DNA of 64,000 bases, from positions 21,290 through 85,289 of the forward strand of contig CALEHW010000023.1 in NCBI GenBank assembly GCA_937877715.1, written 5' to 3'. The notes under the pieces are model-generated. The model was not told the origin of the DNA, made no database searches, and was given only the letters and a program-made list of their open reading frames with translations. Source of the stretch: an uncultured Methylophaga sp. (GTDB lineage Bacteria > Pseudomonadota > Gammaproteobacteria > GCF-002020875). Shown here one piece after another: positions 1 through 20,186 of the stretch (the first letter of the stretch is position 1; each line of letters opens with the position of its first letter). Made by a program: the position numbers and the translations under genes.

Positions 1-617
1 GTAAAAAAGAGGTTCAGGTCACCATTAACGGCAAACAGATATGTGTCCCGTCGACACTCTCTGTGATTCAAGCCTTGTGGCATGCTGGATACCCTAGGGT
101 GCAGGGAGTTGGCTGTCTGGAGGGTGTCTGCGGCTCATGTCGCGTTCTGGTGCGCCGCTCCGACACCCAGGAGGTAAGCATGGAGATGGGGTGCCAGACC
201 CTGGTTGAGGAGGGAATGGAGGTGATGTTTCTGGTCTTCCCCTCCCCATCACAGCACACCTACACTCTGGAGCAGATTCCCAACTCTTGGGAGGTTCAGA
301 CCGAATTTCATAAGATTTTTCCAGAGGCACAACAGTGCCGCAACTGTCACGGCTGCAGTGTTGCCTGCCCCAAGGGGATCAGTGTGGAAAAAGGGGTAGA
401 GCTCGCAGTCAAAGGGCGCTTCAAGGAGGCTGGTGACCTCTTTGTCGAATGTATTATGTGTGATCTCTGCATGACCGGCTGCCCTGAGCAGATCGCACCC
501 AATCGGGTCGGACTCTTCTCCCGCCGGGTAACAGCCTATTTTCACGCCCGCCCCTCAAATCTGATCAACCGGCTTGAGAAAATCCGTACCGGCGAACTGC
601 AGATCATAAAAGAGTAG
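1..617 (+). CDS. Iron-sulfur subunit, SdhB/FrdB-like. N-terminal 2Fe-2S domain plus two Cys4 ferredoxin motifs. 5' end lies outside the window.
   Basis: Frame 3 is open from position 3 to the TAG at 615-617. It contains VQVTINGK...GCLEGVCGSCRVLV (a 2Fe-2S motif of the type found in SdhB and XDH small subunits), then CRNCHGCSVACPKG and CIMCDLCMTGCP. The CPKG motif is typical of succinate dehydrogenase/fumarate reductase Fe-S subunits. It sits directly upstream of the FrdA-like gene. Confidence 0.7.
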   Translation, partial: KKEVQVTINGKQICVPSTLSVIQALWHAGYPRVQGVGCLEGVCGSCRVLVRRSDTQEVSMEMGCQTLVEEGMEVMFLVFPSPSQHTYTLEQIPNSWEVQTEFHKIFPEAQQCRNCHGCSVACPKGISVEKGVELAVKGRFKEAGDLFVECIMCDLCMTGCPEQIAPNRVGLFSRRVTAYFHARPSNLINRLEKIRTGELQIIKE

Positions 618-620
618 CAC

Positions 621-2258
621 ATGATCGACAGAGCAAATATTGGAACCACATACCGTGAGGCACTAAAAAGATATCGTCCCAGAGATGAGCGCCCACTACC
701 GGAGCCCGGCATCGATGATGAAAAGCTGCTAAATAAATTTCATCCGGACCATATTGCGGAGAGCCTCACCACCCTGAAGGTTGGCATCAACCGTGGAGAT
801 CCGTGCCACAGACAGCTGGCCGATCTATTGCAATCCGATTCGCGAATCAACGAGGCCGACCTTGCCGGAGCAGCAACTGTAGAGACCGATGTGCTGGTAA
901 TTGGTGGTGGTGGCGCCGGATGTACCGCTGCGCTTATTGCCCAACAGCAGGGTGCCCGGGTTATCCTCGCAACCAAGCTGCGTCTTGGCGATAGCAACAC
1001 AGTAATGGCAGAGGGTGGAATTCAGGCCTCCATCAACAAGGATGACTCGCCCCAGTTTCACTACAATGACACCATCAAGGCTGGACATCATCAATCGGTA
1101 CCTGACCTGGTATCACAACTGGTACTGGATGGACCTGATGTGATCCGCTGGTTAATCCAGCAGGGAATGCAGTTTGATCTGGATGAATTTGGTGACCTGT
1201 TAACCAGACGCGCCGGAGGCACCTCAGCAGATCGCATCTGTTTCTACCGTGACTATACCGGCCTGGAGATGATGCGGGTGCTGCGTGAAGCAGTCCATAA
1301 CAGCAACATAGATGTCTGGGATTACTGCCCCACCGTGGAGCTGCTGGGTGACGACCTTGGTGGATGTTCCGGTGCCGTCATCTCCTCGCTCAAAAACAGG
1401 AAATATATACAGGTCAACGCGAAGGCAGTCATCATTGCAACCGGTGGAATCGGGCGCATGCATCTCAACGGGTTCCCTACCTCAAACCATTTCGGGGCGA
1501 CCGGGGATGGCTTGATACTCGCCTATCGCATGGGTGCGGCCCTGCGCGATCTCGACTCATTCCAGTACCACCCTACCGGTCTTGCCCACCCCTTCCACCT
1601 TGCAGGCAGTCTGATTACCGAGGGGGTTCGCTCCTGCGGAACCTATCTACTGAATAGCAAGGGTGAACGTTTTGTCGATGAGCTCTCGGCCCGGGACATT
1701 GTGGCTGCCTCGGTGATTCGTGAGTGCCGTGAGGGACGCGGAATCGTAACTGACGATAACAACTGCGGGGTCTGGCTCGACATCCCGGGGCTTGAGCTGC
1801 GTCAGCCAGGAATTCTCCAGCAACGCTTTCCAAAACTTATGCGCCTGGGGGAGAAGGCGGAGATTGACCTTACCAAAAAACCCCTCCTAATCTACCCCAC
1901 CCTCCATTACCAGAATGGTGGTGTTGTCATTAACGAGAATTGTGAAACCTCAATCCCCGGACTTTTCTGTACTGGAGAGGTGACCGGTGGAATTCACGGC
2001 AGAAACCGCATCATGGGCAACGCCCTGCTGGAGATTATCAGCTTTGGACGCAAGGCGGGAATGGCCGCAGCACAGCGAAGAAAGAAGAAACGGAGCAGTC
2101 AGCTCTCCATTGAACACCTAAACCAGCTGCGTAGGGAGCTGACCAACATGGGGCTCTCTATGGAGACAGAGGGGCCTCTACTATTCCCAGAGTATGCAAA
2201 GTTTGATCTCGACTCGGACTATGCCGGCCTGCGCCGTAACCGCGGGAGCACATCATGA
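621..2258 (+). CDS. Fumarate reductase/succinate dehydrogenase flavoprotein-like subunit. Soluble type with His to Asn at the covalent-FAD position.
   Basis: 545 aa. N-terminal FAD fold VLVIGGGGAGCTAAL. GDSNTVMAEGGI replaces SdhA RSHTVAAQGG. QYHPTG and LITEGVRSCGTYLLNSKGERF closely match the SdhA/FrdA active-site region (LVTEGCRGEGGYLLN..GERF). Confidence 0.8.
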   Translation: MIDRANIGTTYREALKRYRPRDERPLPEPGIDDEKLLNKFHPDHIAESLTTLKVGINRGDPCHRQLADLLQSDSRINEADLAGAATVETDVLVIGGGGAGCTAALIAQQQGARVILATKLRLGDSNTVMAEGGIQASINKDDSPQFHYNDTIKAGHHQSVPDLVSQLVLDGPDVIRWLIQQGMQFDLDEFGDLLTRRAGGTSADRICFYRDYTGLEMMRVLREAVHNSNIDVWDYCPTVELLGDDLGGCSGAVISSLKNRKYIQVNAKAVIIATGGIGRMHLNGFPTSNHFGATGDGLILAYRMGAALRDLDSFQYHPTGLAHPFHLAGSLITEGVRSCGTYLLNSKGERFVDELSARDIVAASVIRECREGRGIVTDDNNCGVWLDIPGLELRQPGILQQRFPKLMRLGEKAEIDLTKKPLLIYPTLHYQNGGVVINENCETSIPGLFCTGEVTGGIHGRNRIMGNALLEIISFGRKAGMAAAQRRKKKRSSQLSIEHLNQLRRELTNMGLSMETEGPLLFPEYAKFDLDSDYAGLRRNRGSTS

Positions 2259-3511
2259 GCACAGATGATCTTAACCAGGTCCTGCTTCACCCGGATCGCC
2301 GTTTTGGTGCAGATCTTGATACCTGGCTGGTTGATATCGGCGGTGACGGCTTGGAGAGTGCCATCCAGAATAGGGAAGAGATTCTGCCAACAATTCACAA
2401 GGCCAATCTGTTGGGGCTTGGGGGGAGCGGATTCCCCACCCATGTAAAGTGGGAATTCGTTGCTAATGAACCATCGGATCAGGACAAATATCTAATCTGT
2501 AATGGCAATGAGGATGAGCCGGGAACTTTCAAAGATCGGATACTTCTCCAGGAGACTCCTCATCAGGTAATTGAAGGTGCGATGATTACCGCCCTGGCCA
2601 CCGGCACCAACCAAATTGTCTTCTATATCAACCCCGAGCAGGAGGGCTCACTCGAGGCGATGAAAGAGGCTACCAACCAGTGGAGTGAGACCGATTACGT
2701 CAGCCAAATCTCCGAACTGCTGGGGCGCCCACTGGAATTTTATATTGTTGCTAGCTCTGGACACTACATTGGTGGGGAGGAGACTGCTGCCATCGAGTCC
2801 ATTGAGGGGAAATTCCCCTTCCCACGTGGCAAGCCACCCTACCCCGCCCAGACTGGATTGTTTGGACTGCCAACACTGATAAACAATGTAGAGACGATGG
2901 CCAATGTCTCTCACATCATCCGTAACGGCTCCGACTGGTTCATCAATCTGGGGCATGGGGAGTCTCACGGAACCAAGATTTTCTCTCTGAGTGGTGACGT
3001 ATTGCGCCCTGGGGCCTATGAGCTGCCAATGGGGACCCCGCTCTCCAACCTGATCTATGAGCACGGCGGAGGAATGCTGCTTGACCGAAAATTGAAGGCG
3101 GTATTCACCGGAGGACCATCCAACACAATTCTCACCCCGAAGGATCTTGATGTACCGCTGGACTTTGAGTCTGTGCAGCAGAGACGCTCCAGTCTCGGGA
3201 CTGGCGCAATGATCGTGATCTCCGAGGGGACCGGTATCGTACGTCGAGTCACGGAGTATGTATCCTTCTTTGCAAACTCCTCCTGTGGTCAGTGCCCATC
3301 ATGCAAGACTGGAACCTTCTATGCCTCACAGTTGCTCACTCGCATCGATAGCGGCAATGGGAATCGTGCCGATCTCGATACCCTGATTAACCTTACCCGC
3401 ATTCTTCCCGGAAGTGGTCGCTGCCACCTACTGGATGGAGCAATGAAACTACTAGACAGCTCACTCTACCACTTTATGGAAGAGTATGAGCAACCGCTAA
3501 AACACTCCTAA
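2255..3511 (+). CDS. NuoF-like (51-kDa subunit family) NADH-binding FMN/4Fe-4S protein.
   Basis: 418 aa. GLGGSGFPTHVKWEF matches the NuoF GRGGAGFPTGLKW motif. The C-terminal SCGQCPSCKTGT matches the NuoF 4Fe-4S motif. Overlaps the upstream gene by 4 nt. Confidence 0.75.
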   Translation: MSTDDLNQVLLHPDRRFGADLDTWLVDIGGDGLESAIQNREEILPTIHKANLLGLGGSGFPTHVKWEFVANEPSDQDKYLICNGNEDEPGTFKDRILLQETPHQVIEGAMITALATGTNQIVFYINPEQEGSLEAMKEATNQWSETDYVSQISELLGRPLEFYIVASSGHYIGGEETAAIESIEGKFPFPRGKPPYPAQTGLFGLPTLINNVETMANVSHIIRNGSDWFINLGHGESHGTKIFSLSGDVLRPGAYELPMGTPLSNLIYEHGGGMLLDRKLKAVFTGGPSNTILTPKDLDVPLDFESVQQRRSSLGTGAMIVISEGTGIVRRVTEYVSFFANSSCGQCPSCKTGTFYASQLLTRIDSGNGNRADLDTLINLTRILPGSGRCHLLDGAMKLLDSSLYHFMEEYEQPLKHS

Positions 3512-3767
3512 AAATCCGGGGAGAAAATACCCCTGACAATCTTCGGTGAAATCCCACTAAAAATCGGGTAACTTCTGGCTATTTTCGTCAAACTAACGCG
3601 ATCAAGCGCCATTATAACCCTCTCCGAACTTGATTTTTGGGTCCCTTTTGTGAGATCATGCGCGGCTATCACGGTTGATTGGTTAAGTATCACACAACGC
3701 CAACTCAACCAATTCATGGCAGAAATGGAAACAACTGCAACAAGCAGAATCTACGAGGGAATCGTTA

Positions 3768-5639
3768 GTGCAACCACAAACCAAACAGGAACATATTGTA
3801 GAAATCGTCAGTGATTCCGGAGAAGGGGCGCAGAAGTGCGGACAGACCTTCGGAACCATCAGTGCAAAGATGGGGAATGGTGTCTGGACAGTAGAGATCA
3901 TTCCCGCTGAGATCCAGCCACCGGCACGAACCCCTTCCGGGGCCAGCGGCATCCGTATCAGACTCGGCTCAAAAGAGATTACTAATGTAGGTAACGAGGG
4001 TGATCTGGTAGTCGCCTTCAATGAGCAGGTTCTCTACTCCAGAATTGCAAATGGTGCTTATAAAGAGGGAACTGTGGTTCTGCTTGATAACCGCTGGGAG
4101 AGTGATCGCTCTACCGAGATTCAGCAGATGTACAAGAAGGCTGTTGCGGAGTTTCGAGACCATGGATTGGTTGTCCATGAACTACCAATCCACGAGGCCT
4201 GCCTAAAAGTTGTCAAAGATCCCCGCAAGGGGAAAAACATGTTTGTCCTTGGTATGCTCTGCCGAATATACAACCGTGACAAAGAGATGGGGCGCAATGA
4301 GATTGCACTCACCTTTGCTGGCAAGGCAGAGAAGATCATCACCAGCAACCAGAAACTGTTTGATGCCGGATACCAATTTGCAGCCGAGCAGCTTGGTGAA
4401 TATTTCTTTGAAATCCCAACTCGTGAAGACCGTAGTGACAGCCCAATGGTGGTCACAAATGGAAATACAGCTGTCGGCCTTGGAGTGATGGCCTCGGGAA
4501 TGGAGCTAGTCTCCATGTACCCGATTACCCCAGCCACCTCAGCCTCGCACTACCTTGCCGATGTGTTTCCAGCCGCAGGTGGCTTTGTCCACCAGGCAGA
4601 GGATGAGATTGCAGCAATCGCCTTTGCCATTGGTGCCTCCTATGCAGGTAAAACTGCCTGCACCATCACCTCCGGACCAGGTATGGCCCTAAAGACCGAG
4701 AATATTGCCCTAGCGGTAATGGCAGAGGTTCCCCTTGTAATTGTCAATGTTCAACGAGGCGGCCCATCCACTGGACTCCCCACCAAGATTGAACAGGGTG
4801 ACCTGCTCTCCGCACTTTATGGCGAGCCGGGTGATGCACCTAAAATTATCCTTGCAGCAGCAACTATCGCAGAGTGTTGCAGTATGGTGGTGCTGGCCAG
4901 AAAGCTGGCAGAGTCATTCCGTACCCCGGTAATTGTATTAACCGATGCCAACCTGGCAACCGGAGTACAGCCATGGGAACGTCCAGAGTTGAGTCGTGAC
5001 ATGCTGGCTCCACCTCTCGACCAATCAGAGTGGAATAGTGATATTCCCGCTTATGACTGGGATGAAAAAACCGGACTCTCACAACGTCCCATCCCGGGCA
5101 TGCCGAATGGTGAATACGTACTTACCGGACTCTCTCACACCAAACAGAGCAAGGTCTCATACGAATCTGCAGAAAACCAGTACAGCGCCACTATGCGTAG
5201 CCGTAAACTGGCCACCCTGCAGAGCACCCTGACCCCACCTAATATCCATGGGGACGAGAGTGGAGATATGTTGGTGGTTGGTTGGGGATCTACCTTTGGT
5301 GCAATCGAGGAGGCAGTCGATAATCTGCGGACAACGGGCGAGAAAATCTCATCAATCCATCTGCGCTTCCTCTCACCTCTGGAGCCTGGATTGACCGAGA
5401 TCTTCTCCCAATTTAAAAAGGTTATAACAATTGAGGTGAACTACAGTGATGACATCAATGCACCGATGATCACCACTGAAAATCGCCGCTATGCACAACT
5501 GGCAATGGTGCTTCGTGTTCAGACCCTGGCAGATGTCGACTGCTGGTCGGCAGTCTACGGCCATCCCCTGCAACCAGAGATGATCGGTAATGTTCTGCAG
5601 GAACGTCTAAACCAACTCAACAAGAAAACAGGAGAATAG
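3768..5639 (+). CDS. korA: 2-oxoglutarate:ferredoxin oxidoreductase alpha subunit (two-subunit Kor type; gamma+alpha domains).
   Basis: 623 aa with a GTG start. N-terminal SDSGEGAQKCGQ (gamma-domain glycine motif). YPITPATSASHYLAD is the hallmark YPITPxS motif of 2-oxoacid:ferredoxin oxidoreductases. Confidence 0.85.
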   Translation: MQPQTKQEHIVEIVSDSGEGAQKCGQTFGTISAKMGNGVWTVEIIPAEIQPPARTPSGASGIRIRLGSKEITNVGNEGDLVVAFNEQVLYSRIANGAYKEGTVVLLDNRWESDRSTEIQQMYKKAVAEFRDHGLVVHELPIHEACLKVVKDPRKGKNMFVLGMLCRIYNRDKEMGRNEIALTFAGKAEKIITSNQKLFDAGYQFAAEQLGEYFFEIPTREDRSDSPMVVTNGNTAVGLGVMASGMELVSMYPITPATSASHYLADVFPAAGGFVHQAEDEIAAIAFAIGASYAGKTACTITSGPGMALKTENIALAVMAEVPLVIVNVQRGGPSTGLPTKIEQGDLLSALYGEPGDAPKIILAAATIAECCSMVVLARKLAESFRTPVIVLTDANLATGVQPWERPELSRDMLAPPLDQSEWNSDIPAYDWDEKTGLSQRPIPGMPNGEYVLTGLSHTKQSKVSYESAENQYSATMRSRKLATLQSTLTPPNIHGDESGDMLVVGWGSTFGAIEEAVDNLRTTGEKISSIHLRFLSPLEPGLTEIFSQFKKVITIEVNYSDDINAPMITTENRRYAQLAMVLRVQTLADVDCWSAVYGHPLQPEMIGNVLQERLNQLNKKTGE

Positions 5640-5641
5640 TC

Positions 5642-6604
5642 ATGTTTGGAATCAAGGCAGACTGGTCCCTAGATATTCAGGAACGTTATTTCACTCTCGA
5701 TGATTATGAGGGCAATGAGGCACGCTGGTGTTCTGGTTGTGGTGATCATGCCGTACTGGCAACAGCCCACCGTATCCTGCGTGACGCACAGCTTCCACCT
5801 GAAAAATCTGTTTTTGTCTCAGGTATCGGTTGCTCCAGCCGTATGCCCCACTATATGGCTACCTATGGGCTACATGGAATCCATGGACGAGCCCTGCCAC
5901 TAGCATGTGGCGTCAAGTCACGCCGCCCTGATCTGGATGTCTGGGTTGCCACCGGAGATGGTGACTGTTACTCTATCGGTGCCGGTCACTGGATCCATGC
6001 TGTGCGATACAATATGGATATGACCGTACTGATTTTTGACAACCAGATTTATGGGCTAACCAAAAAACAGACATCCCCAACCAGTCCAATTGAACTAAAG
6101 ACCAACACCCACCCTGAAGGTGCCTCCCTGGATGCCATGAATCCCAACACAGTAACCCTGGGCATTACCAATGCATCCTTTGTGGCACAGGTGGTTGACT
6201 GGAACCCTCCCCTGCTACACGAGACACTCAAGGCTGCCCATGCCCACAAGGGAGCCAGCTTTGTACGCATCATTCAGCGCTGCCCGGTCTTTGTCGACTC
6301 CATCACCAAGGAGCTACAGGAAGATGCCTCACGTCTGCGGCTACTGACTCATGAGAATGGTATCCCGGTTGCCAAGGGGGTCGAAAAACTGTTCCCGGAT
6401 AGCGTAGAGCATGATCCGTCAGATATGGCAGGGGCACTCAGAATTGCACGAGACGAGACCGAAAAAGGGATTATTCCGGTTGGACTTCTCTACCAGAACC
6501 AGAACATCCCCTGTTACAGCGACCTCTCTGGTCAGGGCGTTGAGACTACAGATGAAGAGAAGATTGCAGCAACCAATGCAGCATTGGATGTATTTGCAAT
6601 ATGA
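5642..6604 (+). CDS. korB: 2-oxoglutarate:ferredoxin oxidoreductase beta subunit (TPP-binding).
   Basis: 320 aa. WCSGCGDH is the characteristic Cys motif. TGDGDCYSIGAGHW...DNQIYGLTKKQ is the TPP GDG...N motif. Lies 3 nt after korA. Confidence 0.85.
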   Translation: MFGIKADWSLDIQERYFTLDDYEGNEARWCSGCGDHAVLATAHRILRDAQLPPEKSVFVSGIGCSSRMPHYMATYGLHGIHGRALPLACGVKSRRPDLDVWVATGDGDCYSIGAGHWIHAVRYNMDMTVLIFDNQIYGLTKKQTSPTSPIELKTNTHPEGASLDAMNPNTVTLGITNASFVAQVVDWNPPLLHETLKAAHAHKGASFVRIIQRCPVFVDSITKELQEDASRLRLLTHENGIPVAKGVEKLFPDSVEHDPSDMAGALRIARDETEKGIIPVGLLYQNQNIPCYSDLSGQGVETTDEEKIAATNAALDVFAI

Positions 6605-9069
6605 GTAGCGCACCCTCCCTTCCTGTTCTCAAGTCAACTCGACCGGACCCAAAGTCCGAGGCCGCCATTCTGCGAACACTCCACCACTTCCATCTGGGAG
6701 ACCCCAGCGTGGAACAGGAGACCAGAGAGATCGGCAGCGACTACCTGCCAGCACTGTTGAATCCATTTCGTGACGCCTCCAAACTACGTTATGACTATCC
6801 ACTGATTCTCTTCTCCAGAGACTCGAAGCAGGATATTGCGCAGCCACTTACCTTATTTCTACAAGAGTCTGTCGCAGAGTTTGCCCCTGGGGAGAATAGT
6901 GCACGCATCCTCAAGGATAATCTCACCTGGCTAGAGCACGCTATTCGCAGCGAAATTACAGATAGTGAGAGACCAATTGGTCTCTCCCCAATCATGCAAC
7001 GTGCAATCGAGGCGCTACAGCAGCACCTATCTCTCTCGGGCGAAAACAAGGATAAACTGCAGAACGATCTTGACCAGCTACAAAAACAGTTTACTGATCA
7101 GGACAAGTTTCTCACCTACAATCGCTACACTGCAATCCATCTGATGATTCATCTGATCCATGGAAGATCAGAGGAACGCTGGGATGAATTTGAGAGCGAG
7201 CTTGAACAGCTACAACAACAACTGTCAAAAATACTGGAGATTGAGCAGAGCAAGTCCAAAGAGGCAATGGGTGCAGATGCTATGCAGAAAAGCGTAGGCA
7301 GCAGCGCATCCCGATTCAATCCTGAGGCTCTCTCATCTATTCTTCCCCATAGTGCCGGCACAGTGGCAATGTCGGATGAACGAAAGGAGCGTATCAGCCG
7401 CGCTGCAGAGACTCTAGACCAATTCAACCGTGACCCCATTCAGGTGCACTTCATCCATACTGGAGACTTCTCTGGGGATTGGAGTGATAGCAGTGTACAT
7501 TTCAAAACCACTATCGACGCAGACCCATGCCACAAGGCAGCGGAACTATTCGATGAGGAGGCCAATAATCTGGCAGAACTGTTCAGTGCCTGCAGGATTG
7601 CGCGCCTAGAAATAAACAACAGCTATGATCCCATTGTGCATGATCCATGGTTTGCCAATTTTAACTGGGAGGCCTTCTCTGAAGAGGAGTTATTGCTGGT
7701 TCCAGCAATTGTTGCCTTGGAGCCTGCCGATAGGCTGGGACATGAAGGACTAAACTCGTTTTCTCAGTTATTGGGGTCGGGCAGGCCAATTCAGATCCTC
7801 AGCCGAGTCAAGGGGCACAGCAACCCGGCAGCCACTGAAGATGAATCTCCATTTCATGATTTCCGTCTGGAGCTGGGATACCTCGCAACAGCCCACCGCC
7901 AATGTTATGTCGCCCAGACCTCAGCAGCACGTTACCAGCATCTAATGCAGGGCTTCCTTGAAGCGACAGAGATACCACGGACCGGGGTACATCTAATTAA
8001 CACTGGAATTCAGCATGCCGATGACGACTTCCTGATGGACCCATGGATGGTTGCCAGTGCAGCCCTCGAGGGACGTGTACACCCCTTCTTCCGGATGAAT
8101 CCAGAACGGGGAGACACCTTTGCAGAGCGCATGGATTTCAGCATAAATCCGCAGCCGGAGAGAGACTGGGCGACCCACCCTTTCAGTTACAAAAACGAGT
8201 CCGGTGAGGTTACCCATACCGAATTCGCATTCACCTTTGCCGATTACGCACTACTGGTTCCACGCCTACAAAACCATTTTCGCCTGATTCCAGATGACTT
8301 TGAATCAGACTCTCTAACCCCTATTGCAGAGTATCTTGACTGCTCCAATGAGGAGAGTTTCTCACTAGTACCGTTTGTCTGGGCCATCAATGAGGACAAT
8401 ATTCTTCACAGGGCAGTAGTCTCACGCGAACTAATCCTTGCCTGCAAGGACCGCCTCAACTACTGGCACACCCTGCAAGAGCTATCTGGAGTTCGGAACC
8501 TACATGCAGAGCAGGCCGTAACTGAGGCTCAGCTGCTTATGGAGGCAAAACAGAACAGTGTAATCAGCGAACTAAATGCCGCACATGATAAGGAGATCAA
8601 CCAACTCAGAGCCGATGCAACAACCGAGGTGATGGGGAAACTGGCCCAAGTATTGATGGGAATGAATCTTGGGGCAAGATCGAGCGACCTTGAACATGGA
8701 TTCTCCTCTCCTCCCCCCACAGAGGCAGTCCTCCAAACTCCAGATAGTGAACCGACCAAGGTAAGTAAGGAGGAGGCCAAGGATCAGGTTACGGAAGAGG
8801 AGCCTGAAGCAGAGATTTCGGAAGACCCATGGATTGAGTCTATTCTATGCACTACCTGCAATGACTGTACTGACATGAATCCTCAGATGTTTGTCTACAA
8901 TGATGACAAGCAGGCCTATATTGCCGACCCTAATGCCGGAACCTATGAGGAGCTGGTCGAGGCAGCAGAGATATGTCCCTCACGCTGCATCCATCCCGGC
9001 CTTCCGCTCAACAGTAGTGAGCCCAACCTAGATGAGCTGATCGAGAGAGCAGCCCCCTTCAATCAGTAG
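6601..9069 (+). CDS. Large uncharacterized protein. N-terminal approx 330 aa are unknown and helical. The central region resembles PFOR domain VI but has no GDG motif and no proximal-cluster Cys. The C-terminus is a single [4Fe-4S]/[3Fe-4S] ferredoxin domain.
   Basis: 822 aa. Overlaps the korB stop as ATGA. The region ...YVAQTSAARYQHLMQGFLEATEIPRTGVHLINTG...HPFFRMNPERGDTFAERMDFSINP aligns by eye to the PFOR C-terminal region (YVAxVSMG...PGPSLxIAYSPC...WPLYRYNPxxxxxGKNPFxLDS). The C-terminal CTTCNDCTD...FVYNDDKQAYIADPN...CPSRC is the pattern of single-cluster ferredoxins (Pyrococcus/Thermotoga Fd type). It shares the helical motif AHDKEINQLRAD with the 1286-aa protein (GHQQEINNLRNQ). Confidence 0.6.
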   Translation: MSSAPSLPVLKSTRPDPKSEAAILRTLHHFHLGDPSVEQETREIGSDYLPALLNPFRDASKLRYDYPLILFSRDSKQDIAQPLTLFLQESVAEFAPGENSARILKDNLTWLEHAIRSEITDSERPIGLSPIMQRAIEALQQHLSLSGENKDKLQNDLDQLQKQFTDQDKFLTYNRYTAIHLMIHLIHGRSEERWDEFESELEQLQQQLSKILEIEQSKSKEAMGADAMQKSVGSSASRFNPEALSSILPHSAGTVAMSDERKERISRAAETLDQFNRDPIQVHFIHTGDFSGDWSDSSVHFKTTIDADPCHKAAELFDEEANNLAELFSACRIARLEINNSYDPIVHDPWFANFNWEAFSEEELLLVPAIVALEPADRLGHEGLNSFSQLLGSGRPIQILSRVKGHSNPAATEDESPFHDFRLELGYLATAHRQCYVAQTSAARYQHLMQGFLEATEIPRTGVHLINTGIQHADDDFLMDPWMVASAALEGRVHPFFRMNPERGDTFAERMDFSINPQPERDWATHPFSYKNESGEVTHTEFAFTFADYALLVPRLQNHFRLIPDDFESDSLTPIAEYLDCSNEESFSLVPFVWAINEDNILHRAVVSRELILACKDRLNYWHTLQELSGVRNLHAEQAVTEAQLLMEAKQNSVISELNAAHDKEINQLRADATTEVMGKLAQVLMGMNLGARSSDLEHGFSSPPPTEAVLQTPDSEPTKVSKEEAKDQVTEEEPEAEISEDPWIESILCTTCNDCTDMNPQMFVYNDDKQAYIADPNAGTYEELVEAAEICPSRCIHPGLPLNSSEPNLDELIERAAPFNQ

Positions 9070-9076: not shown

Positions 9077-9940
9077 ATGAATAGCTTGCTTGCCTCTCCA
9101 GCCATCATGATGGGAATTGGCCTCTTCTTTGGGGTGATTCTTGCTGTGGCCTACCGCCTGCTAAAGGTGGACGAAGACCCAAGAATTGATGAGACCGAGG
9201 AGATGCTGCCCGGCACCAACTGTGGCGCCTGTGGTGTCCCGGGCTGCCGCGCCTTTGCCGAGGAGCTGATCAGGGGCACTGCCGAACCGAGTCAGTGCAC
9301 GGTTGCCCCCAAGGATGAGATCGTGGAGATTGCAGATTTTCTCGGAGTTGATGCAGGATCACAGATCAAGCGGGTTGCCCGCCTCCACTGTGCCGGCGGC
9401 AAGGCCGAGGCCTGGCAGATTGCAGAGTACCGGGGGTTTGACAGCTGCCGTGCGGCCGCCGTGGTATCCGGTGGCGGCAAGGGGTGTTCCTGGGGATGCC
9501 TTGGGCTGGCCGACTGCGAGATAGCCTGCAATTTCGATGCTATCCATATAAACAGTAATGGACTACCTGTAGTAGATCCGGAGAAATGTACAGCCTGTGA
9601 GGATTGTGTTGTTGCATGCCCCAAGGATCTCTTCAAGATCCATCCTGTCAACGAACACCTGTTTGTGCAGTGCAGTGCCCCTCTGGAGGGGGACGCCATC
9701 CTCTCTCTTTGCAGTGCCGCCTGTGACAGCTGCAGCCGTTGTGCCTCAGACTCCAACCCTGGCCTAATAGAGATGGTCGACGGACTACCCGTTGTTGACT
9801 ACAGCAGCGGGGCCGAAGAGAGTCCCGATGCTACCTGGCGCTGCTCAACCGAGGCCATTATCTGGCTTGATGGTGGACAGTTTGATCAACAAAACCAAAA
9901 CATGACCGAAGGTCAGAAACGTTATGCCCAGCTTCGCTGA
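9077..9940 (+). CDS. rnfB: Rnf electron transport complex subunit B (polyferredoxin).
   Basis: 287 aa. N-terminal membrane anchor followed by LPGTNCGACGVPGCRAFAEEL, the RnfB signature. Multiple CxxCxxCxxxCP motifs downstream. Confidence 0.85.
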   Translation: MNSLLASPAIMMGIGLFFGVILAVAYRLLKVDEDPRIDETEEMLPGTNCGACGVPGCRAFAEELIRGTAEPSQCTVAPKDEIVEIADFLGVDAGSQIKRVARLHCAGGKAEAWQIAEYRGFDSCRAAAVVSGGGKGCSWGCLGLADCEIACNFDAIHINSNGLPVVDPEKCTACEDCVVACPKDLFKIHPVNEHLFVQCSAPLEGDAILSLCSAACDSCSRCASDSNPGLIEMVDGLPVVDYSSGAEESPDATWRCSTEAIIWLDGGQFDQQNQNMTEGQKRYAQLR

Positions 9941-12900
9941 AATTGCCAACCGCATCTATCGTAAAGTTCTCGGTGTAGATGGCACCGTGGGGGAAGACAA
10001 GAACAGCATCTCTGTGCTGCTCGATGGTGCCACCGCAGTGGCCACTGTCGAGGCGATACTCTCCGAGGCTGCAGCCAGTGGCGAAACCTTCCCTCCAGAG
10101 AGGGGATCAAGTGCCTGGCGTAGCGAACAGCAGCGCCAGCAGGTAAACCTGTTCGGAAAACCACTGCTACAGATGGAGAGTAACACCCCTCGCGGCTCTC
10201 TCTCTGCCGCCATGGGTCTTGCAATGGCTGGCAGACGAGCTTTCTGCAGCCTCTGGTCGAGCGATCTTGCCGCCTCACAAGATCTGGTTCGCAGAGCAGT
10301 TGGCCGCCACCTGCCACTGGTTATCCATACCATTAATCGTGCACTCCCTCTAAACGGAGAGAGCCTTGGCGGAAGTGATGAGGGAATCCACCAACTGACA
10401 AATAGTGGGGCATTCATCCTCTTTGCCGAGAATGGTCAACAGGCAGTTGATTTCACTCTGATCGCCCGTGCCGTTGCAGAGCGAGCCCTGGTTCCCGCAA
10501 TCGTGGTCATGGATGGTGACGAGACTGCATTTGCATCTCAACAGATCGATCTCCCATCTCCTGAACTGATTGAAAAACTTATCGGCAACAGCTCCGACCC
10601 CATATCAATTGCTGACCCGGCACAGCAGCTGCTGTTTGGTGATGAACGCCGCAGGGTGCCGGGCTGGTACAGCCTGGACCACCCCACCCTGCAGGGGAGT
10701 TATCGTGACCGCCACAGCTTTGGAACTGGAGCGGTCTCTCACACCACCTTCTTTGGAAAACAGGTTAAGGGAATTCTGCATGAAATCTTTGGTGAGTTTG
10801 CAGACTTAACCGGAAGAAACTACAGCTCCCTTAACTACCATGGTAAAAAAGGTGCAAGGAAGATAGTAATCACCCAGGGAGCCATTACTGGACGCTGCCG
10901 CACAATTGTCGATCTATTGCAGAAGAGAGAGAAGATCTCGATCGCGGTTGTTGGAATAGGGACTACTGCCCCCTTCCCTGCCGCAGAGCTGGGAGAAATT
11001 CTACAAAATTGCCAGGAGATCACCCTGTTCGATCGCAGCGAACCTCTGCTAAACGAGCTCCCTCCACTGTACAGTCAGGTGGCCCCACTCATTCCAGCTA
11101 ACTGCAGATCCGCATCCATCATTTATGGGGTTGGCGGAACCCCAGTCAATGATGCCGACCTGATCGCCGCCTGCATGGCTCCACACAACAGATCAGCTGG
11201 TGAAGTCCCCGTCTACCGAATGGGAATAACCACACTAGCCGACAATAGCAATCCAAAACAGCAGGTACTCAGGGATCTGCTGGAAAGAAACTATCCACAG
11301 CTGGCAGAGCTGGGAATCAGAGAAGAAGATTCTGCCGCAGAGGAGAGCCCAGCAACACCATCCGTCTTGCGGGCATCCGCAGGAGGCGAAACGCCCACCC
11401 ACCGGACGCCAATGGCGGTACGACACCTTGGCAAACAGGGTGGTGTCGGCCACGCTGGATACCACAACCTGTCACGATTCTGGGATCAGACCGGTCTGCT
11501 CTATCGGGATGGAATGGAGAGTAGACAGGGGGTTGATCCATTTGCTGCCGCTGCTCACATACCACCACTGACATCAACATTTTCCAGCGTTGGGGATGGA
11601 TCCATTCCATTCTTCAATCCGGAAAACTGTAGTGGATGTGGCAGCTGCTGGAGCAACTGCCCAGACAGCGCTATTGGCGCCGTCTCCATACTACCCAGCA
11701 AACTACTGGAATCAGCCCTACAGATGGGAGGAGCAGATGCACTACGCCCACATCTCTCCGAGCTATCCAGGGAAATAAGCCTTACTACCGAAAGTGGAGA
11801 GGCTGGCACTATTATCCGAAAGAGCTGGGATACGATAATGGAACAGTCCCCTCTTTCAGAGGAGAGAAGAGCCAGTGCCGAGGATGCCATAACAACACTT
11901 ATCTCTAATATCGGCGCCCTCCCGGTTGCCCATACAGAACCACTATTCCATCAGCCGGAACGGCTTAAGGCTCAATCAGGTGAACTACTCTCTGTGGTCA
12001 TCAACCCTGATAGCTGTAAGGGGTGCGGAATATGCACCCGCCTCTGTCAGGATGAGTCTAATCGACAGGAGATTGAAAATCCCGCCCTCACCATGATGGA
12101 GCAGGATAGTAAAGATAGAGAGAACAGTTATCACACCTGGAGCATCTGGGAACAACTCCCAGATAGTGCCTCAACCACACTGGTCAATTATGGGACATAT
12201 CCCGATATAGGTCAGCTCAATGCAACCATGCTCTCTCGCTACGCCTCCATGACCATGGCTGGTGGAGATTCTGCAGAGCCAGGCTCTGGAGAGAAGATTG
12301 TTGTTCGTCAGCTACTGGGGATTACTGAATACCATCAACAACCACTTGTTCGTCAACTTCTCAAGGAGATGGATGAGAAACAGAGTGGGCTGGTTGCAGG
12401 GATTCGCGAAAAACTGGCTACAGCATCCCATGCAGATGATCTCTCTCTTCTGGCAGAGGGGCTGGGGAATCTATCCAGTCGTCAGCTTGATCTAACCACC
12501 CTGGCAGAAAAAACTGCTGGTATTGAGGGTGACAGTGTAGATGCCCACGAGCTGAAAGAGTGGGTAGAGCTTGCCGAATCCATTCGCATAGAAAAGGAGA
12601 AGATCGAGAAGGGAGAACACTCTCTGGGACGTGCTCGCTACAGTCTGGCCTTCGCCTCGGGAACCGCTGCCACCTGGGCTGGCACCTTCCCCTACAACCC
12701 ATTCCAGGTTCCGGTAGTAATTGGAGAGGCTGGGGAGATCGGGGCTCTGGCCTCAGGATTGATGGAGGGACAACTAGAGCAGACAACTGAAGTCCACCGC
12801 CTTCTCCGCAAGGCAAAGGCCTTGCTCAAGGGGAGACTTCCTGCCGAGCGCAAGGAGATAGACAAAACAACATGGGGAGACCTTACCGCAGATGAGCTGC

Positions 12901-13784
12901 AACAGTGCCCTCCCATGCTGCTTATTGGGAATGACACTACACTGGGTGCAGGATCTGCCGGTGAGCTCAACTGGATTCTCAACAGCAGGCTCCCCATCAA
13001 GATTATCGTGCTGGCAGAGATGGATCTTGGCTTTAGCGAGGCTCATGCAGACTCCAGATCAGAGCTTGCCATGGCTGCCCTCTCCCAACGCGGTGCATAT
13101 GTGGCCCAGTGCTCCATCGCGGCACCAGAGCAGATGAACCGAGCAATGCGTGAGGCCCTAAACTACCCAGGCCCTGCACTATTGCGGCTCCACGCCCCAA
13201 GCCCACAACGCCACGGATTTGGCCCCGAGATGACTACTGTCCAGGCAGAACGAGCAGTAAATGGACGTGCCTTCCCACTATTCAGTTACAACCCGGAGGC
13301 AACAGGGGTGTTTGGTACCCGCATCAGCCTTGGGGGCAACCCGGAGAGTGAGATCTCCATCGCAGAGTGGGCCTTCCATGAGGGGCGCTTCTCCGGACAA
13401 TTCCAACCCTTATCTCCTGCACTGCAGAGCCAATCTGCAAATCTTGAGGAGTGGCTCAAACTGGATGAGAGGGGGCAAAACAACAAGACACCAATATTCA
13501 ACGAGTATGCAATCGAACCGGATTTTGCACGTCGACTGGGGCAACTTGTCGAACAGTGGCAGATGCTGCAGGAGCTGGCCGGTATCGTCACCCCATTTAC
13601 CGAAGATGTCAGAGAGCAGGCAGACAAGGCAATTGCTGAGAGTCACCAAAGAGAAATTGACGAGTTGAAAAAGGGACACCAGCAGGAGATAAACAACCTG
13701 CGCAACCAACTGGAATCCGAGATTACCCAGAGGATTACCGAACGCCTAGTTGCACTAACTGAAACCCAGAAAAAACCAAACTAA
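9924..13784 (+). CDS. Divergent pyruvate:ferredoxin oxidoreductase (PFOR/NifJ)-like protein. It keeps the two-cluster ferredoxin domain but apparently lacks the proximal-cluster cysteines. It has an insertion of about 170 aa and a coiled-coil C-terminal tail.
   Basis: 1286 aa. Domain-I-like region DGATAVATVEAI...MGLAMAGRRAFCSLWSSDL...LPLVIHTINRAL matches PFOR DGNTAxAHVAYA...HGALAAGALTTTFTASQGL...LPGVFHVSARA. Ferredoxin domain CSGCGSCWSNCP + CKGCGICTRLC (8 Cys). Domain-VI-like region IGNDTTLGAG...YVAQCSIAAPEQMNRAMREALNYPGPALLRLHAPSPQRHGFG...FPLFSYNP. The positions of the PFOR proximal-cluster ligands (GACxGCGE, ATGCSS, SPC) read AGGDSAEPGS, ASGTAATW and SPQ. Confidence 0.65.
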   Translation: MPSFAEIANRIYRKVLGVDGTVGEDKNSISVLLDGATAVATVEAILSEAAASGETFPPERGSSAWRSEQQRQQVNLFGKPLLQMESNTPRGSLSAAMGLAMAGRRAFCSLWSSDLAASQDLVRRAVGRHLPLVIHTINRALPLNGESLGGSDEGIHQLTNSGAFILFAENGQQAVDFTLIARAVAERALVPAIVVMDGDETAFASQQIDLPSPELIEKLIGNSSDPISIADPAQQLLFGDERRRVPGWYSLDHPTLQGSYRDRHSFGTGAVSHTTFFGKQVKGILHEIFGEFADLTGRNYSSLNYHGKKGARKIVITQGAITGRCRTIVDLLQKREKISIAVVGIGTTAPFPAAELGEILQNCQEITLFDRSEPLLNELPPLYSQVAPLIPANCRSASIIYGVGGTPVNDADLIAACMAPHNRSAGEVPVYRMGITTLADNSNPKQQVLRDLLERNYPQLAELGIREEDSAAEESPATPSVLRASAGGETPTHRTPMAVRHLGKQGGVGHAGYHNLSRFWDQTGLLYRDGMESRQGVDPFAAAAHIPPLTSTFSSVGDGSIPFFNPENCSGCGSCWSNCPDSAIGAVSILPSKLLESALQMGGADALRPHLSELSREISLTTESGEAGTIIRKSWDTIMEQSPLSEERRASAEDAITTLISNIGALPVAHTEPLFHQPERLKAQSGELLSVVINPDSCKGCGICTRLCQDESNRQEIENPALTMMEQDSKDRENSYHTWSIWEQLPDSASTTLVNYGTYPDIGQLNATMLSRYASMTMAGGDSAEPGSGEKIVVRQLLGITEYHQQPLVRQLLKEMDEKQSGLVAGIREKLATASHADDLSLLAEGLGNLSSRQLDLTTLAEKTAGIEGDSVDAHELKEWVELAESIRIEKEKIEKGEHSLGRARYSLAFASGTAATWAGTFPYNPFQVPVVIGEAGEIGALASGLMEGQLEQTTEVHRLLRKAKALLKGRLPAERKEIDKTTWGDLTADELQQCPPMLLIGNDTTLGAGSAGELNWILNSRLPIKIIVLAEMDLGFSEAHADSRSELAMAALSQRGAYVAQCSIAAPEQMNRAMREALNYPGPALLRLHAPSPQRHGFGPEMTTVQAERAVNGRAFPLFSYNPEATGVFGTRISLGGNPESEISIAEWAFHEGRFSGQFQPLSPALQSQSANLEEWLKLDERGQNNKTPIFNEYAIEPDFARRLGQLVEQWQMLQELAGIVTPFTEDVREQADKAIAESHQREIDELKKGHQQEINNLRNQLESEITQRITERLVALTETQKKPN

Positions 13785-13816: not shown

Positions 13817-14995
13817 ATGAACCTCCACGAATACCAATCCAAACAGCTCTTTGAGCAGGTAGGCATCCCCATCCCCAAGGGCAAAACAGTTGAGAGACTG
13901 AATGATGTAGAGCAGGCAGCAGATGAGATTGGCGGCTCTGCATGGGTTGCCAAGGCACAGGTTCATGCCGGCGGCCGCGGCAAAGCCGGGGGGGTCAAAA
14001 TTGCCAGCAGCAAGGATGAGCTTGCTACATTCACCAATGAGATGCTTGGTGGAACCCTGACCACCCCACAGACTCATGGCCGGGCACTACCAATTCAGAA
14101 AGTCCTGATCGAGCAGACCCTGGATATCGGTCGCGAACTCTATCTGGGCGCACTGGTTGACCGCGATCGCGAACAGATTGTCTACATGGCATCCGCTGCA
14201 GGTGGCATGGATATCGAGCAGGTTGCCGCCGAGACACCGGAGAAGATTCTCACCGTACATGCCCACAGCGCTGCCGGTCTACAGCCTTACCAGTGCCGTC
14301 AACTGGCGTTTGGTCTCGGACTGAAGGGAAAGCAGATTGGTGCGCTTACTCGTATCCTCAGCGGACTCCATATCCTATTCATCCATAACGACCTGAGCCT
14401 GGTCGAGATCAACCCCCTGATCGTTACGGTGAGTGGGGAGTTACTGGCACTGGATGCAAAGATTAACCTTGATGACAACGCTCTATATCGCCATCCCAAA
14501 CTGCAGGAGCTGCATGACCCATCTCAGGAGGACGCAAGGGAGCTGGAGGCGGGCAAGCATGACCTCAATTACATTACCCTGGATGGCAATATTGGTTGCA
14601 TGGTAAACGGTGCAGGCCTGGCAATGGCCACCATGGATCTTATCAAGCTCCATGGTGGAGACCCGGCAAATTTCCTCGATGTTGGTGGAGGCACAACCGC
14701 AGAACGGGTAGCTGCCGCATTCAAACTAATCCTCAGTGACTCCAAGGTAGAGGCCATTCTGGTAAACATCTTTGGCGGCATTGTCCGTTGTGACCTTATC
14801 GCCGAGGGGATTATCACTGCAGTAAAAGAGGTGGGAGTAGAGATACCGGTAATTGTCCGCCTCGAGGGGACCAATGCCCCTCAGGGGATGGAGCTATTGA
14901 AAAAGAGCGGCCTTGATATTGATGTCGAAGAGACCCTGACCGGCGCCGCCAAAAAAGCAGTCGCCTCCACCACGTCAACAGGAGAAGGGGCATGA
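13817..14995 (+). CDS. sucC: Succinyl-CoA synthetase beta subunit (ATP-grasp).
   Basis: 392 aa. [12 protein letters not shown]...[17 protein letters not shown] is a near-canonical SucC N-terminus. Confidence 0.9.
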
Positions 14996-15879
14996 GTATC
15001 TTGATCAACGCAGAGACCCGCGTCATCGTACAGGGATTTACCGGAAAACAGGGTACCTTCCATGCCGAGCAATCCATCGCCTATGGCACCAATATTGTCG
15101 GTGGCGTCACCCCCGGCAAGGGTGGCCAGAGCCATCTTGATCGACCCGTATTCAATACCGTAGCTGATGCGGTGACAGAGACTGGTGCAGATGCCACCAT
15201 GATCTATGTCCCCGCAGCCTTTGCTGCCGATGCAATATTTGAGGCCGCCTCGGGTGGAATCAAAACCATTGTCTGCATTACCGAGGGGATCCCGGTTCAG
15301 GACATGATCAAGGTTAAAGCATTCCTGAGCGACTACCCCGATACCCACCTTATTGGACCCAACTGCCCCGGCATCATCACTCCAGGTAGCAACAAAAATG
15401 GCTGCAAGATTGGAATCATGCCAGGAAATATCCACCAGGAGGGCTCCGTAGGAATCGTCTCCCGCTCCGGAACACTCACCTATGAGGCAGTATTCCAGAC
15501 CACCAATGAGGGGCTGGGACAAAGCACCTGTATCGGAATTGGTGGAGATCCGATTCATGGCATGAACTTTATCGACTGCCTGGAGCTATTCCAGCAGGAT
15601 GAGCAGACCAAAGGAATTGTTCTGGTTGGCGAGATTGGCGGCAGCAAGGAGGAGGAGGCTGCCGAATATATCCGCAACAGTGTCACCAAGCCGGTAGTTG
15701 CCTATATTGCCGGAGTTACTGCACCTCCAGGACGAAGAATGGGCCACGCCGGTGCCATCATCTCCGGCGGCAAGGGTACAGCCGAGGACAAGATAGCCGC
15801 ACTCGAGGCTGTCGGGGTAACAGTCTCCCGCTCCCCGGCCGAGATTGGCAAGCACATGGCAGAGCTATTAAATAGCTAA
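14992..15879 (+). CDS. sucD: Succinyl-CoA synthetase alpha subunit.
   Basis: 295 aa. Rossmann CoA-binding N-terminus [12 protein letters not shown]. Phosphohistidine loop [15 protein letters not shown]. Overlaps the sucC stop as ATGA. Confidence 0.9.
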
Positions 15880-15888
15880 CCAGTTGAT

Positions 15889-19596: not shown

Positions 19597-20186
19597 TGAC
19601 AGATGCCGCCTTCCAGCACTTTCTCTGGATATTTATCAGTGCCCTGCTAGTCAACAACTTCGTGCTGGCCTACTTCCTTGGACTCTGCCCCTTCCTGGGC
19701 GTATCCGGAAAGCTTGAGACCTCATTCAGGCTTGGTCTTGCCACCACCTTTGTACTGATCATCACCGCCATCTGTGCCTGGATACTCAACACCTACGTAC
19801 TTCCCCACGCCCCCTACCTGCGGCTGATCAGCTTTATTGTGGTGATCGCCAGCGTGGTGCAGTTTATCGAGATGTTGATCAAGAAGCTGAGCCCGGCCCT
19901 GTTCCGATCACTTGGAATCTTCCTGCCACTGATCACCACAAACTGCGCCATCCTCGGACTCGCCATCTTTGCCACCAATCGTGAATATAGTTTTGCCGAG
20001 AGCATTATATTCGCCCTCGGTGCTGGCGGCGGATTTACCCTGGCGCTGCTGCTAATGGCAGGATTGCGTGAGGAGAGCGAACTCTCCGATGTCCCCACCC
20101 TGATCCGAGGCACCGCTTTCAACCTGATCATTGCGGGAATTCTCTCCATGGCCTTTATGGGCTTTGCCGGACTCTTCTCGTCATGA
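19593..20186 (+). CDS. rnfA: Rnf complex subunit A (NqrE/RnfA family).
   Basis: 197 aa. FLGLCPFLGVS and LITTNCAILG are RnfA-type motifs. Confidence 0.8.
   Translation: MMTDAAFQHFLWIFISALLVNNFVLAYFLGLCPFLGVSGKLETSFRLGLATTFVLIITAICAWILNTYVLPHAPYLRLISFIVVIASVVQFIEMLIKKLSPALFRSLGIFLPLITTNCAILGLAIFATNREYSFAESIIFALGAGGGFTLALLLMAGLREESELSDVPTLIRGTAFNLIIAGILSMAFMGFAGLFSS

Follow-up and report, generated by a model that had tools for sequence, protein, structure and literature searches.

The window analysed here is a 64,000-nucleotide (nt) stretch of contig CALEHW010000023.1 that opens with three co-directional genes on the + strand (positions 3–3511), which together probably encode a soluble fumarate reductase driven by reduced nicotinamide adenine dinucleotide (NADH). 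The first open reading frame (ORF; (<1)3–617) encodes an iron-sulfur (Fe-S) subunit, of which 204 amino acids (aa) are visible; its 5′ end lies outside the window, and comparison with the 208-aa orthologue at locus L004 indicates that about five N-terminal codons are cut by the window start. The second ORF (621–2258) encodes the catalytic flavoprotein (545 aa) and is separated from the end of the Fe-S gene at 617 by a 3-nt gap. The third (2255–3511) encodes a 418-aa NuoF-like subunit for NADH, flavin mononucleotide (FMN) and an N3-type [4Fe-4S] cluster. The initial annotation had noted that this gene is joined to its neighbour by a 4-nt overlap, and the ATGA at 2255–2258 is indeed common to the flavoprotein stop and the NuoF-like start. 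We refer to the three genes as the triad.

We compared the flavoprotein with the E. coli FrdA, SdhA and NadB sequences from NC_000913. The PF00890 family (FAD_binding_2) matches residues 90–469, including the capping domain, with an E-value of 5.9e-78; the GGGGAG motif of the flavin adenine dinucleotide (FAD) fold aligns with all three references, and the identity to FrdA and SdhA is 33–34%. The active-site block, first described as essentially intact, contains both QYHPTG and LITEGVRSCGTYLLNSKGERF, and alignment with E. coli FrdA shows that all the fumarate residues are kept. In particular, H317, T333, E334, R358, H429 and R463 match FrdA H232, T244, E245, R287, H355 and R390, and the full set for binding and protonating fumarate is present (the His of HPTG, T-E-x-x-R, R-D, the His of HYxxGG and the Arg of NRL). 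In alignments of 56–63 family members, N126, H317, T333, E334, R337, R358-D359, H429 and R463 are invariant. The covalent-FAD His (S-H-T-V) is replaced by Asn126 (S-N-T-V), as the initial annotation had read it, and alignment with FrdA, SdhA and NadB places this Asn at the FAD-linking position in all 63 family members. Non-covalent FAD is usual in soluble fumarate reductases, which run in the reductive direction.

The two ends of the flavoprotein set it apart. The C-terminal helical domain PF02910 has no match, and the ~150-residue C-terminal domain common to FrdA, SdhA and NadB is replaced by a short tail. At the other end, residues 1–85 form a family-specific N-terminal extension with invariant H41-P42-D43 and C62-H63; a Pfam search of the extension and the tail found nothing at E<0.1. 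An AlphaFold2 (AF2) model of the flavoprotein (predicted local distance difference test, pLDDT, 75; predicted template modelling score, pTM, 0.78) folds the extension confidently, and a Foldseek search with the model ranks E. coli FrdA first (E 4e-30), followed by mycobacterial Sdh1 and flavocytochrome c3, with NadB in 39th place. A membrane complex II flavoprotein was rejected because anchors, the covalent-FAD His and the C-terminal domain are all missing.

Curated models agree that the protein stands apart. The best-scoring NCBIfam model is that of TfrA (NF004900), a comparison proposed at the outset, and it yields 353.1 bits over model positions 5–418 of 546, half of the cut-off of 718, which argues against a TfrA assignment. 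The sdhA/frdA model (TIGR01812) reaches 301.7 bits versus a cut-off of 567.3, the nadB model (TIGR00551) 301.2 bits versus 452.75, and the fum_red_Fp model 224.6 bits versus 932.7. The flavoprotein represents a lineage of its own in the fumarate reductase superfamily, outside NadB, TfrA and the complex II flavoproteins.

The near-equal nadB and sdhA/frdA scores bear on a competing explanation, in which the triad would be an L-aspartate oxidase or dehydrogenase for NAD synthesis that converts aspartate to iminoaspartate and sends the electrons through the Fe-S protein and NuoF to NAD+. Several public annotations of orthologues do say L-aspartate oxidase, and NadB has the same dicarboxylate-binding residues together with non-covalent FAD. 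However, the TIGR00551 score is far below its cut-off, and the residue aligned with Glu121 of NadB (E. coli numbering), a contact of the aspartate amino group in NadB, is Ala198 in the flavoprotein and Pro in one family member. The NadB C-terminal domain is absent, and NadB requires no Fe-S or NuoF partner. The neighbouring genes belong to the tricarboxylic acid (TCA) cycle, with fumarase in a sister clade described below, and neither nadA nor nadC is nearby. An L-aspartate oxidase as closest homologue would have refuted the initial annotation by its own terms, but the model score, the residue at the Glu121 position, the missing C-terminal domain and the gene context each contradict this explanation; we rejected it and regard it as highly improbable.

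The Fe-S subunit was first described as FrdB-like, a label that can stand for its cluster inventory but not for its family. Its 2Fe-2S site (C38-X4-C43-X2-C46...C64) is spaced as in SdhB, and its two 4Fe-4S sites (C112/115/118/122 and C150/153/156/160) follow the cubane motif C-X2-C-X2-C-X3-CP, with four Cys each, 38 residues apart, which is the spacing of a compact 2x[4Fe-4S] ferredoxin domain. All 12 Cys (12/12) are invariant in 30 orthologues. These motifs indicate one 2Fe-2S and two 4Fe-4S clusters; the SdhB/FrdB pattern would instead place a 4Fe-4S and a 3Fe-4S site some 50 residues apart after the 2Fe-2S site. Pfam assigns Fer2_4, Fer4_9, Fer4_8 and Fer4_17 to the protein, and matches neither Fer2_3 (PF13085) nor the CCG/HdrB-type domain (PF02754). 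Two SdhB models score far below their cut-offs (NF004616, 19.9 bits versus 228; NF006391, 18.2 bits versus 244), and membership of the SdhB/FrdB family is not supported.

Profile and structure searches gave a similar picture. Aligning the Fe-S subunit to E. coli FrdB with hhalign yields a probability of 90.8%, confined to the 2Fe-2S region, and 35.8% for SdhB, while a sequence search of the PDB finds both NuoI/NDUFS8 and SdhB weakly (E ~1e-3 to 1e-5). The AF2 model is poor (pLDDT 56.6), and only its N-terminal beta-grasp is usable. With this low-confidence model, Foldseek matches the N-terminal ~80 residues to the 2Fe-2S domain of NuoG/NDUFS1/FdsA/HydA (E ~3e-4), and the top 50 matches are mainly NuoG-type 2Fe-2S domains with a few small subunits of the xanthine-oxidase family and no SdhB. 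The family is small and tight, comprising 393 database proteins. The Fe-S subunit could equally be described as a cut-down connector of the NuoG/HoxU type.

The third protein is recognizable from end to end. Pfam finds Complex1_51K, SLBB and NADH_4Fe-4S, and the sequence aligns over its entire length with bacterial NuoF structures at E ~1e-85 (M. smegmatis NuoF and a second series of bacterial NuoF chains; 7q5y, 6hl2). The FMN loop and the acidic loop for NADH are conserved, as are the GGSGFPT, NEDEPGTFKD and GEETA motifs and the four cysteines of N3 (C-X2-C-X2-C...C). The N3 cysteines are the only Fe-S ligands among its 418 aa, with no extra Fe-S domains. Scores against the NuoF models stay low (TIGR01959, 388.7 bits versus 558.65; NF010120, 326.3 bits versus 389), and neither nuoE nor any other nuo gene adjoins the triad in the window or in the inspected relatives. 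A true complex I NuoF was therefore rejected, with scores under the cut-offs and no nuo context.

We next consider whether the triad could be anchored to a membrane. The ORF list and Pfam reveal no membrane-anchor genes downstream of the triad in the window; korA, korB and further genes follow instead, in agreement with the initial annotation. The maximum hydropathy over 19 residues (KD19) is 1.1–1.5 for the three proteins versus 2.2 for an RnfB-like control. No stretch in any of the three proteins has the hydrophobic strength of a membrane helix, and the triad is predicted to be soluble. An exact-match look-up of the window's flavoprotein and of the 100% identical P0001 gave no contig, so orthologous loci were used for the upstream side. 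In the closest relative (flavoprotein identity 88%), a 208-codon Fe-S gene opens the unit after a divergent pcnB-folK-panBCD block, and the earlier suggestion that further partners are missing upstream is thereby contradicted. In the Ridgeia/Riftia symbiont (Endoriftia), the triad comes after two mdh genes and a citrate synthase gene in divergent orientation. Neither relative has sdhCD-, frdCD- or nuoE-like genes upstream, so a search for sdhC and sdhD in that direction, also proposed at the outset, leaves the anchor-less reading standing.

To define how widely the arrangement is conserved, we scanned one genome per species and obtained 80 loci with flavoprotein identities of 61–88%. The Fe-S gene immediately precedes the flavoprotein gene in 72 of the 75 loci whose sequence reaches far enough, and the NuoF-like gene immediately follows it in 70 of 76. 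The arrangement is not due to chance because it recurs in 80 species-level genomes. Downstream neighbours were counted in 52 loci with at least 2.5 kilobases (kb) past the NuoF-like gene: korA is next in 27 of them, sucC in three, and unrelated genes in 20, while korA lies further off in two. Most korA-flanked loci carry the whole block of korAB, the 822-aa protein gene and the rnfB-like gene.

The carriers include metagenome-assembled genomes labelled Piscirickettsiaceae (the closest), Thiohalomonadaceae and Sedimenticolaceae, including Sedimenticola, as well as Riftia-, Escarpia- and Lamellibrachia-type symbionts, lucinid symbionts, Thiomargarita and the purple sulfur bacteria of the Chromatiaceae. 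Outside the Gammaproteobacteria, the triad occurs in betaproteobacterial nitrifiers (Nitrosomonas mobilis, L053; Ca. Nitrotoga sp. BS, L063; and L068), where it is an isolated three-gene unit whose proteins are 64–65% identical to the gammaproteobacterial ones. The triad also stands alone in Thiomargarita. The nitrifier occurrence suggests horizontal transfer and a role outside carbon fixation by the reductive TCA (rTCA) cycle. These isolated nitrifier triads show that the arrangement is not tied to rTCA autotrophs, with which the initial annotation had associated it.

The Fe-S/flavoprotein pair lacks a neighbouring NuoF-like gene in six species (L016, L032, L034, L036, L046 and L047). A divergent gene for a 645-aa aconitase-like protein lies upstream in every one of these loci except L016, and the downstream gene encodes a small membrane-anchored protein of unknown function. 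Separately, genes for alanine dehydrogenase, a thioredoxin-reductase-like protein and ftsK lie together in the window (53844–55927, 51306–53639), and the same group closely follows the Fe-S/flavoprotein pair in L034 and L036, which points to shared local synteny among these Gammaproteobacteria.

More distant relatives were sought by an exhaustive search over 50%-identity representatives, in which the window's family collapses to one representative. The next tier is 37–46% identical (the figure for the sister clade is 42–49%), and shares the N-terminal extension and the absent C-terminal domain; all its members keep the catalytic residues and carry Asn where the FAD-linking His would be. All next-tier and sister-clade members fall under every curated cut-off, that of TfrA included. 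One member of the sister clade, P0243 (727 aa), is a natural fusion of an Fe-S homologue (residues 1–200) to the flavoprotein; its Fe-S part is 29% identical to the window's Fe-S protein (E 8e-28) and keeps 12/12 Cys. This fusion, together with the 4-nt gene overlap, supports complex formation by the triad.

A metagenome scan for the sister clade yielded 80 loci (L090–L169), and we counted neighbours within four genes of the pair. In most loci the Fe-S homologue is immediately upstream, and a NuoF-like gene is not adjacent. Genes for both the alpha and beta parts of class I fumarate hydratase are near the pair in 14 of the 80 loci, often directly upstream on the same strand (e.g. L119, L143, L145 and L154). 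HdrC-like, HdrB-like (CCG), HdrA-like and MvhD genes are near the pair in 21 of the 80, a PyrK/NfnA-type NAD(P)-binding protein with 4Fe-4S proteins in 23, korAB(G) in eight, and sucCD or mdh in a few. Hdr-like or PyrK-like modules thus occupy the place of NuoF. Because of these modules and the fumarase neighbours, the Fe-S/flavoprotein pair looks like an ancient and conserved catalytic core, soluble and associated with fumarate and its TCA neighbours, to which different lineages join different electron inputs; the NuoF-like subunit is the electron-input module of the window's clade. As separate observations, the sister clade is widespread in sediments and also present in human-gut metagenomes (e.g. 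L155, L156, L167 and L169), and eight of its loci adjoin a small ferredoxin gene and an acyl-CoA dehydrogenase-like gene.

Combining these results, the best explanation is that the triad encodes a cytoplasmic, soluble NADH:fumarate oxidoreductase, in which a diaphorase module would be attached to a catalytic core and would serve a reductive TCA branch. We assign this reading a probability of roughly 60%; it is essentially the soluble, anchor-less, NADH-linked enzyme of the initial annotation, and the comparative evidence has strengthened it. NADH would be oxidized at the FMN of the NuoF-like subunit, after which single electrons would cross its N3-type [4Fe-4S] cluster, be relayed by the small Fe-S subunit over its 2Fe-2S and two 4Fe-4S clusters, and arrive at the non-covalent FAD of the FrdA-like flavoprotein. 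There, fumarate would be reduced to succinate by the conserved His/Thr/Glu/Arg set. The sequences show which domains are present, which residues are conserved, how the genes are linked and that anchors are missing; we infer the formation of a complex, the order of the clusters, the use of NADH over NADPH and the physiological role.

The direction of such a reaction would be fixed by its energetics. The succinate/fumarate couple lies ~350 mV above NAD+/NADH. Fumarate reduction driven by NADH releases about 58 kJ/mol (~ -58 kJ/mol; Table 1, PMC13147460). Because of this redox gap and free energy change, an NAD-linked enzyme runs only towards succinate, and succinate oxidation with NAD+ was rejected on thermodynamic grounds.

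Downstream of the triad, the + strand carries korA, korB, the 822-aa Fe-S protein gene, the rnfB-like gene, the gene for a protein resembling pyruvate:ferredoxin oxidoreductase (PFOR), sucCD, rnfCDGEA and mdh. The window's operon reads as the reductive branch from oxaloacetate to 2-oxoglutarate, with fumarase encoded elsewhere. The product of the triad would feed SucCD and KorAB (oxaloacetate to malate, fumarate, succinate, succinyl-CoA and 2-oxoglutarate), while Rnf would supply reduced ferredoxin and mdh would cover the step from oxaloacetate to malate. The outcome would be quinone-independent fumarate reduction in sulfur-oxidizing Gammaproteobacteria. No citrate-cleaving enzyme is encoded in the window, and therefore a complete rTCA cycle cannot be claimed.

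Several observations weigh against an NADH:fumarate oxidoreductase. None of the three proteins (0/3) reaches a curated family cut-off. The electron path is a guess, as the model of the Fe-S subunit has low confidence, and substrate, nucleotide specificity and complex formation are all deduced from sequence. A NuoF without NuoE is unusual, and NuoF is not obligatory because six species have the pair without an adjacent NuoF-like gene. The triad is also found in aerobic Calvin-cycle nitrifiers, which have no obvious need for fumarate reduction. In the Escarpia symbiont, expression of the triad (log transcripts per million, TPM, of 0.8–2.0) is below that of korAB (2.7–3.0) (PMC6315080). Finally, spending NADH on fumarate wastes ~58 kJ/mol, which raises the question of coupling (PMC13147460).

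That question could be answered by electron bifurcation, whereby the triad would oxidize two NADH and split the electrons between fumarate and ferredoxin, supplying KorAB and the PFOR-like enzyme. The energetics allow it (+350 mV from NADH to fumarate and ~ -130 mV from NADH to ferredoxin), and the large free-energy drop of a simple NADH:fumarate reaction otherwise looks wasteful. The triad is directly upstream of the ferredoxin-dependent KorAB in 27/52 loci, HdrA/MvhD, a module known for bifurcation, accompanies the sister-clade pair in 21/80 loci, and a bifurcating fumarate reductase has already been proposed for another Endoriftia cluster (PMC6315080). However, the NuoF-like subunit is minimal: it has neither the extra 2Fe-2S and 4Fe-4S domains nor the NuoE-like partner of HydB/NfnB-type complexes, and its solved bifurcating homologues are 580–630 aa long. 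Moreover, Rnf in the same operon already gives a route to reduced ferredoxin, and no ferredoxin-docking feature was identified. We consider bifurcation unlikely. If it did occur, the triad would be a minimal, NuoE-less bifurcator that lowers the energy cost of the reductive TCA cycle in sulfur oxidizers and animal symbionts, within a family whose NuoF, Hdr/MvhD and PyrK-like inputs are swapped; this wider proposal is just as unlikely.

It is also conceivable, although doubtful, that the same architecture carries out other chemistry: the donor could be NADPH or another compound, the substrate a related enoate (of the mesaconate, itaconate or acrylate type), or NuoF an accessory. Scores below every curated cut-off are in keeping with this possibility, as are the unique N-terminal extension and missing C-terminal domain that mark a separate lineage, the six species without an adjacent NuoF-like gene, and the variation of electron-input modules between clades. 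Conversely, both carboxylate-binding His/Arg pairs and the proton-donor Arg are invariant, which is what a C4 dicarboxylate substrate would call for; the recurring neighbours include fumarase, SucCD, KorAB and Mdh; and the NADH/FMN motifs of NuoF are intact.

The genes beyond the triad provide context and are not part of the proposed enzyme. A 256-nt spacer (3512–3767, +) separates the NuoF-like gene from korA. Alignment with four related genomes reveals a conserved motif within it, CTTGATTT-N13/14-ATGAGAT.AT, near 3629–3662, which may be a separate korAB promoter. A simple scan of the spacer between the NuoF-like gene and korA for sigma-70 promoters and terminators found nothing, and Rfam returned no match in the spacer and only a distant tRNA. 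The korA and korB genes (3768–6604, +) encode a two-subunit 2-oxoglutarate:ferredoxin oxidoreductase, according to TIGR03710 (500 bits versus a cut-off of 482.75) and PorB_KorB (230.7 bits). Further along the + strand, Pfam identifies sucC, sucD, rnfC, rnfD, rnfG, rnfE, rnfA and mdh (13817–21319), and from 21.3 to 64 kb the window contains housekeeping genes that are unrelated to the triad.

Three genes travel behind korAB in ~27 species: those of the 822-aa protein (6601–9069), the RnfB-like protein (9077–9940) and the PFOR-like protein (9924–13784). The 822-aa protein has no family match except for a C-terminal single-cluster ferredoxin domain, and the 1286-aa PFOR-like protein is highly divergent (TIGR02176, 114 bits versus a cut-off of 911); the labels 'por-like' and 'por' in the literature for these genes were given without evidence. 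The RnfC (15889–17238) and RnfD (17124–18251) ORFs overlap by 115 nt, and RnfD probably starts at a codon further downstream. In the Endoriftia loci L001–L003 (~18.8–19.3 kb), a gene for a 23S rRNA intervening-sequence protein (PF05635) sits between the 830-aa and rnfB-like genes, and the 830-aa gene of L001 is broken into two parts of 309 and 546 codons.

Parts of this locus have appeared in the literature. Rubin-Blum et al. (PMC6315080) list the Escarpia symbiont cluster as 'rTCA cycle cluster 2', with the entries gltA, ferredoxin, frdx*, nuoF*, korA, korB, por-like, rnfB, por, sucC and sucD (Table S1); the triad genes are transcribed there, with log TPM of 0.78, 1.37 and 1.95, and only KorAB and PFOR of this cluster are discussed. 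According to Mitchell et al., sulfide limitation acts on korAB and this cluster's PFOR-like gene in the sense opposite to its effect on the rTCA cluster. The fumarate reductases of Endoriftia in the literature are tfrAB, in an Hdr-Flx cluster, and a membrane-bound frdCAB. A 2026 survey found many 'incomplete' A or AB fumarate reductases beside rTCA genes and called for verification of such 'novel forms of fumarate reductase' (PMC13147460). Among open-access papers and preprints, we found none in which a NuoF-linked fumarate reductase was described or tested, and the consulted papers on Kentron, Thiomargarita, Nitrospina and PACManus contain no description of the triad. The layout of the triad is known from genome tables and is otherwise not described in the searched literature.

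Among the steps of the reductive TCA cycle, and of the reductive branch more generally, fumarate reduction is the one that most often lacks a clear enzyme. Bacteria with ubiquinone, which is too oxidizing to reduce fumarate, pose this difficulty in its sharpest form. In Endoriftia, the triad would be a third, undiscussed fumarate reductase beside frdCAB and tfrAB. If the proposed function is correct, there would be a new, NuoE-free way of wiring a NuoF diaphorase to a catalytic subunit, the widespread annotations of 'L-aspartate oxidase' and 'FAD-binding protein' would need correcting, and a broader family of enzymes with interchangeable electron-input modules, reaching even into human-gut metagenomes, would be defined. 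The triad is conserved in at least 80 species. Several carriers (Sedimenticola, Thiorhodococcus, Endothiovibrio and Nitrosomonas mobilis) are culturable, which makes the hypothesis directly testable.

The triad shares with FrdABCD and SdhCDAB the catalytic fold, the active-site residues and a gene for a three-cluster Fe-S subunit that adjoins the flavoprotein gene; it differs in lacking the covalent-FAD His, the C-terminal domain and the anchors, and NADH via NuoF would replace quinol. Unlike SdhB and FrdB, its Fe-S subunit is not a recognizable member of their family, and its third cluster has four Cys. The single-polypeptide fumarate reductases (Shewanella flavocytochrome c3, yeast Frd1/Osm1, and the trypanosomatid and Klebsiella enzymes) resemble the triad in having non-covalent FAD and no SdhA C-terminal domain, and in being soluble and unidirectional, and flavocytochrome c3 structures are strong fold matches to the window's flavoprotein. 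Their electrons enter through fused haem, cytochrome b5 reductase-type or FMN domains, with no separate Fe-S subunit and no NuoF.

The electron-input side resembles a different group of enzymes. As in HoxFU, FdsBG and HydBC, a NuoF-like FMN/N3 subunit is paired with a partner that starts with a NuoG-type 2Fe-2S domain and continues with 4Fe-4S clusters, and as in NAD-linked hydrogenases and formate dehydrogenases, a NuoF-type diaphorase is attached to a catalytic subunit. In contrast to HoxFU, FdsBG and HydBC, the triad has neither a NuoE-like subunit or domain nor the domain for a His-ligated N5-type cluster, and its catalytic partner is a fumarate reductase flavoprotein.

TfrAB, the thiol:fumarate reductase of methanogens, is also a soluble enzyme, in which the FAD of TfrA is non-covalent and the partner holds a 2Fe-2S and two 4Fe-4S clusters. 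The likeness extends to TfrA being the best curated model for the flavoprotein and to the HdrB/HdrC-like genes that adjoin sister-clade members. However, TfrA has no N-terminal extension and keeps ~130 C-terminal residues that are absent from the window's flavoprotein, while the triad's Fe-S protein lacks a CCG/HdrB-type domain and its donor module is NuoF-like rather than thiol-based. Pfam finds no Hdr-like gene in the window's operon.

A functional parallel named by the initial annotation was Hydrogenobacter FrdABCDE, known from Hydrogenobacter thermophilus. Compared by description, FrdABCDE and the triad as proposed are both cytoplasmic and multi-subunit, with an FrdA-type subunit, NADH as the donor, no quinone or anchor, and a place in the reductive TCA cycle. 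The likeness is one of function: FrdABCDE has five subunits at scattered loci, the triad three adjacent genes. The NADH-binding subunits of FrdABCDE are not known to be of the NuoF type. The enzyme was described by Miura et al. 2008, as summarized in PMC13147460, where an A subunit of the H. thermophilus type is identified by e < 1e-200. Overall, the triad is best filed with the soluble NADH-dependent fumarate reductases, as a new subunit composition within an unrecognized modular family.

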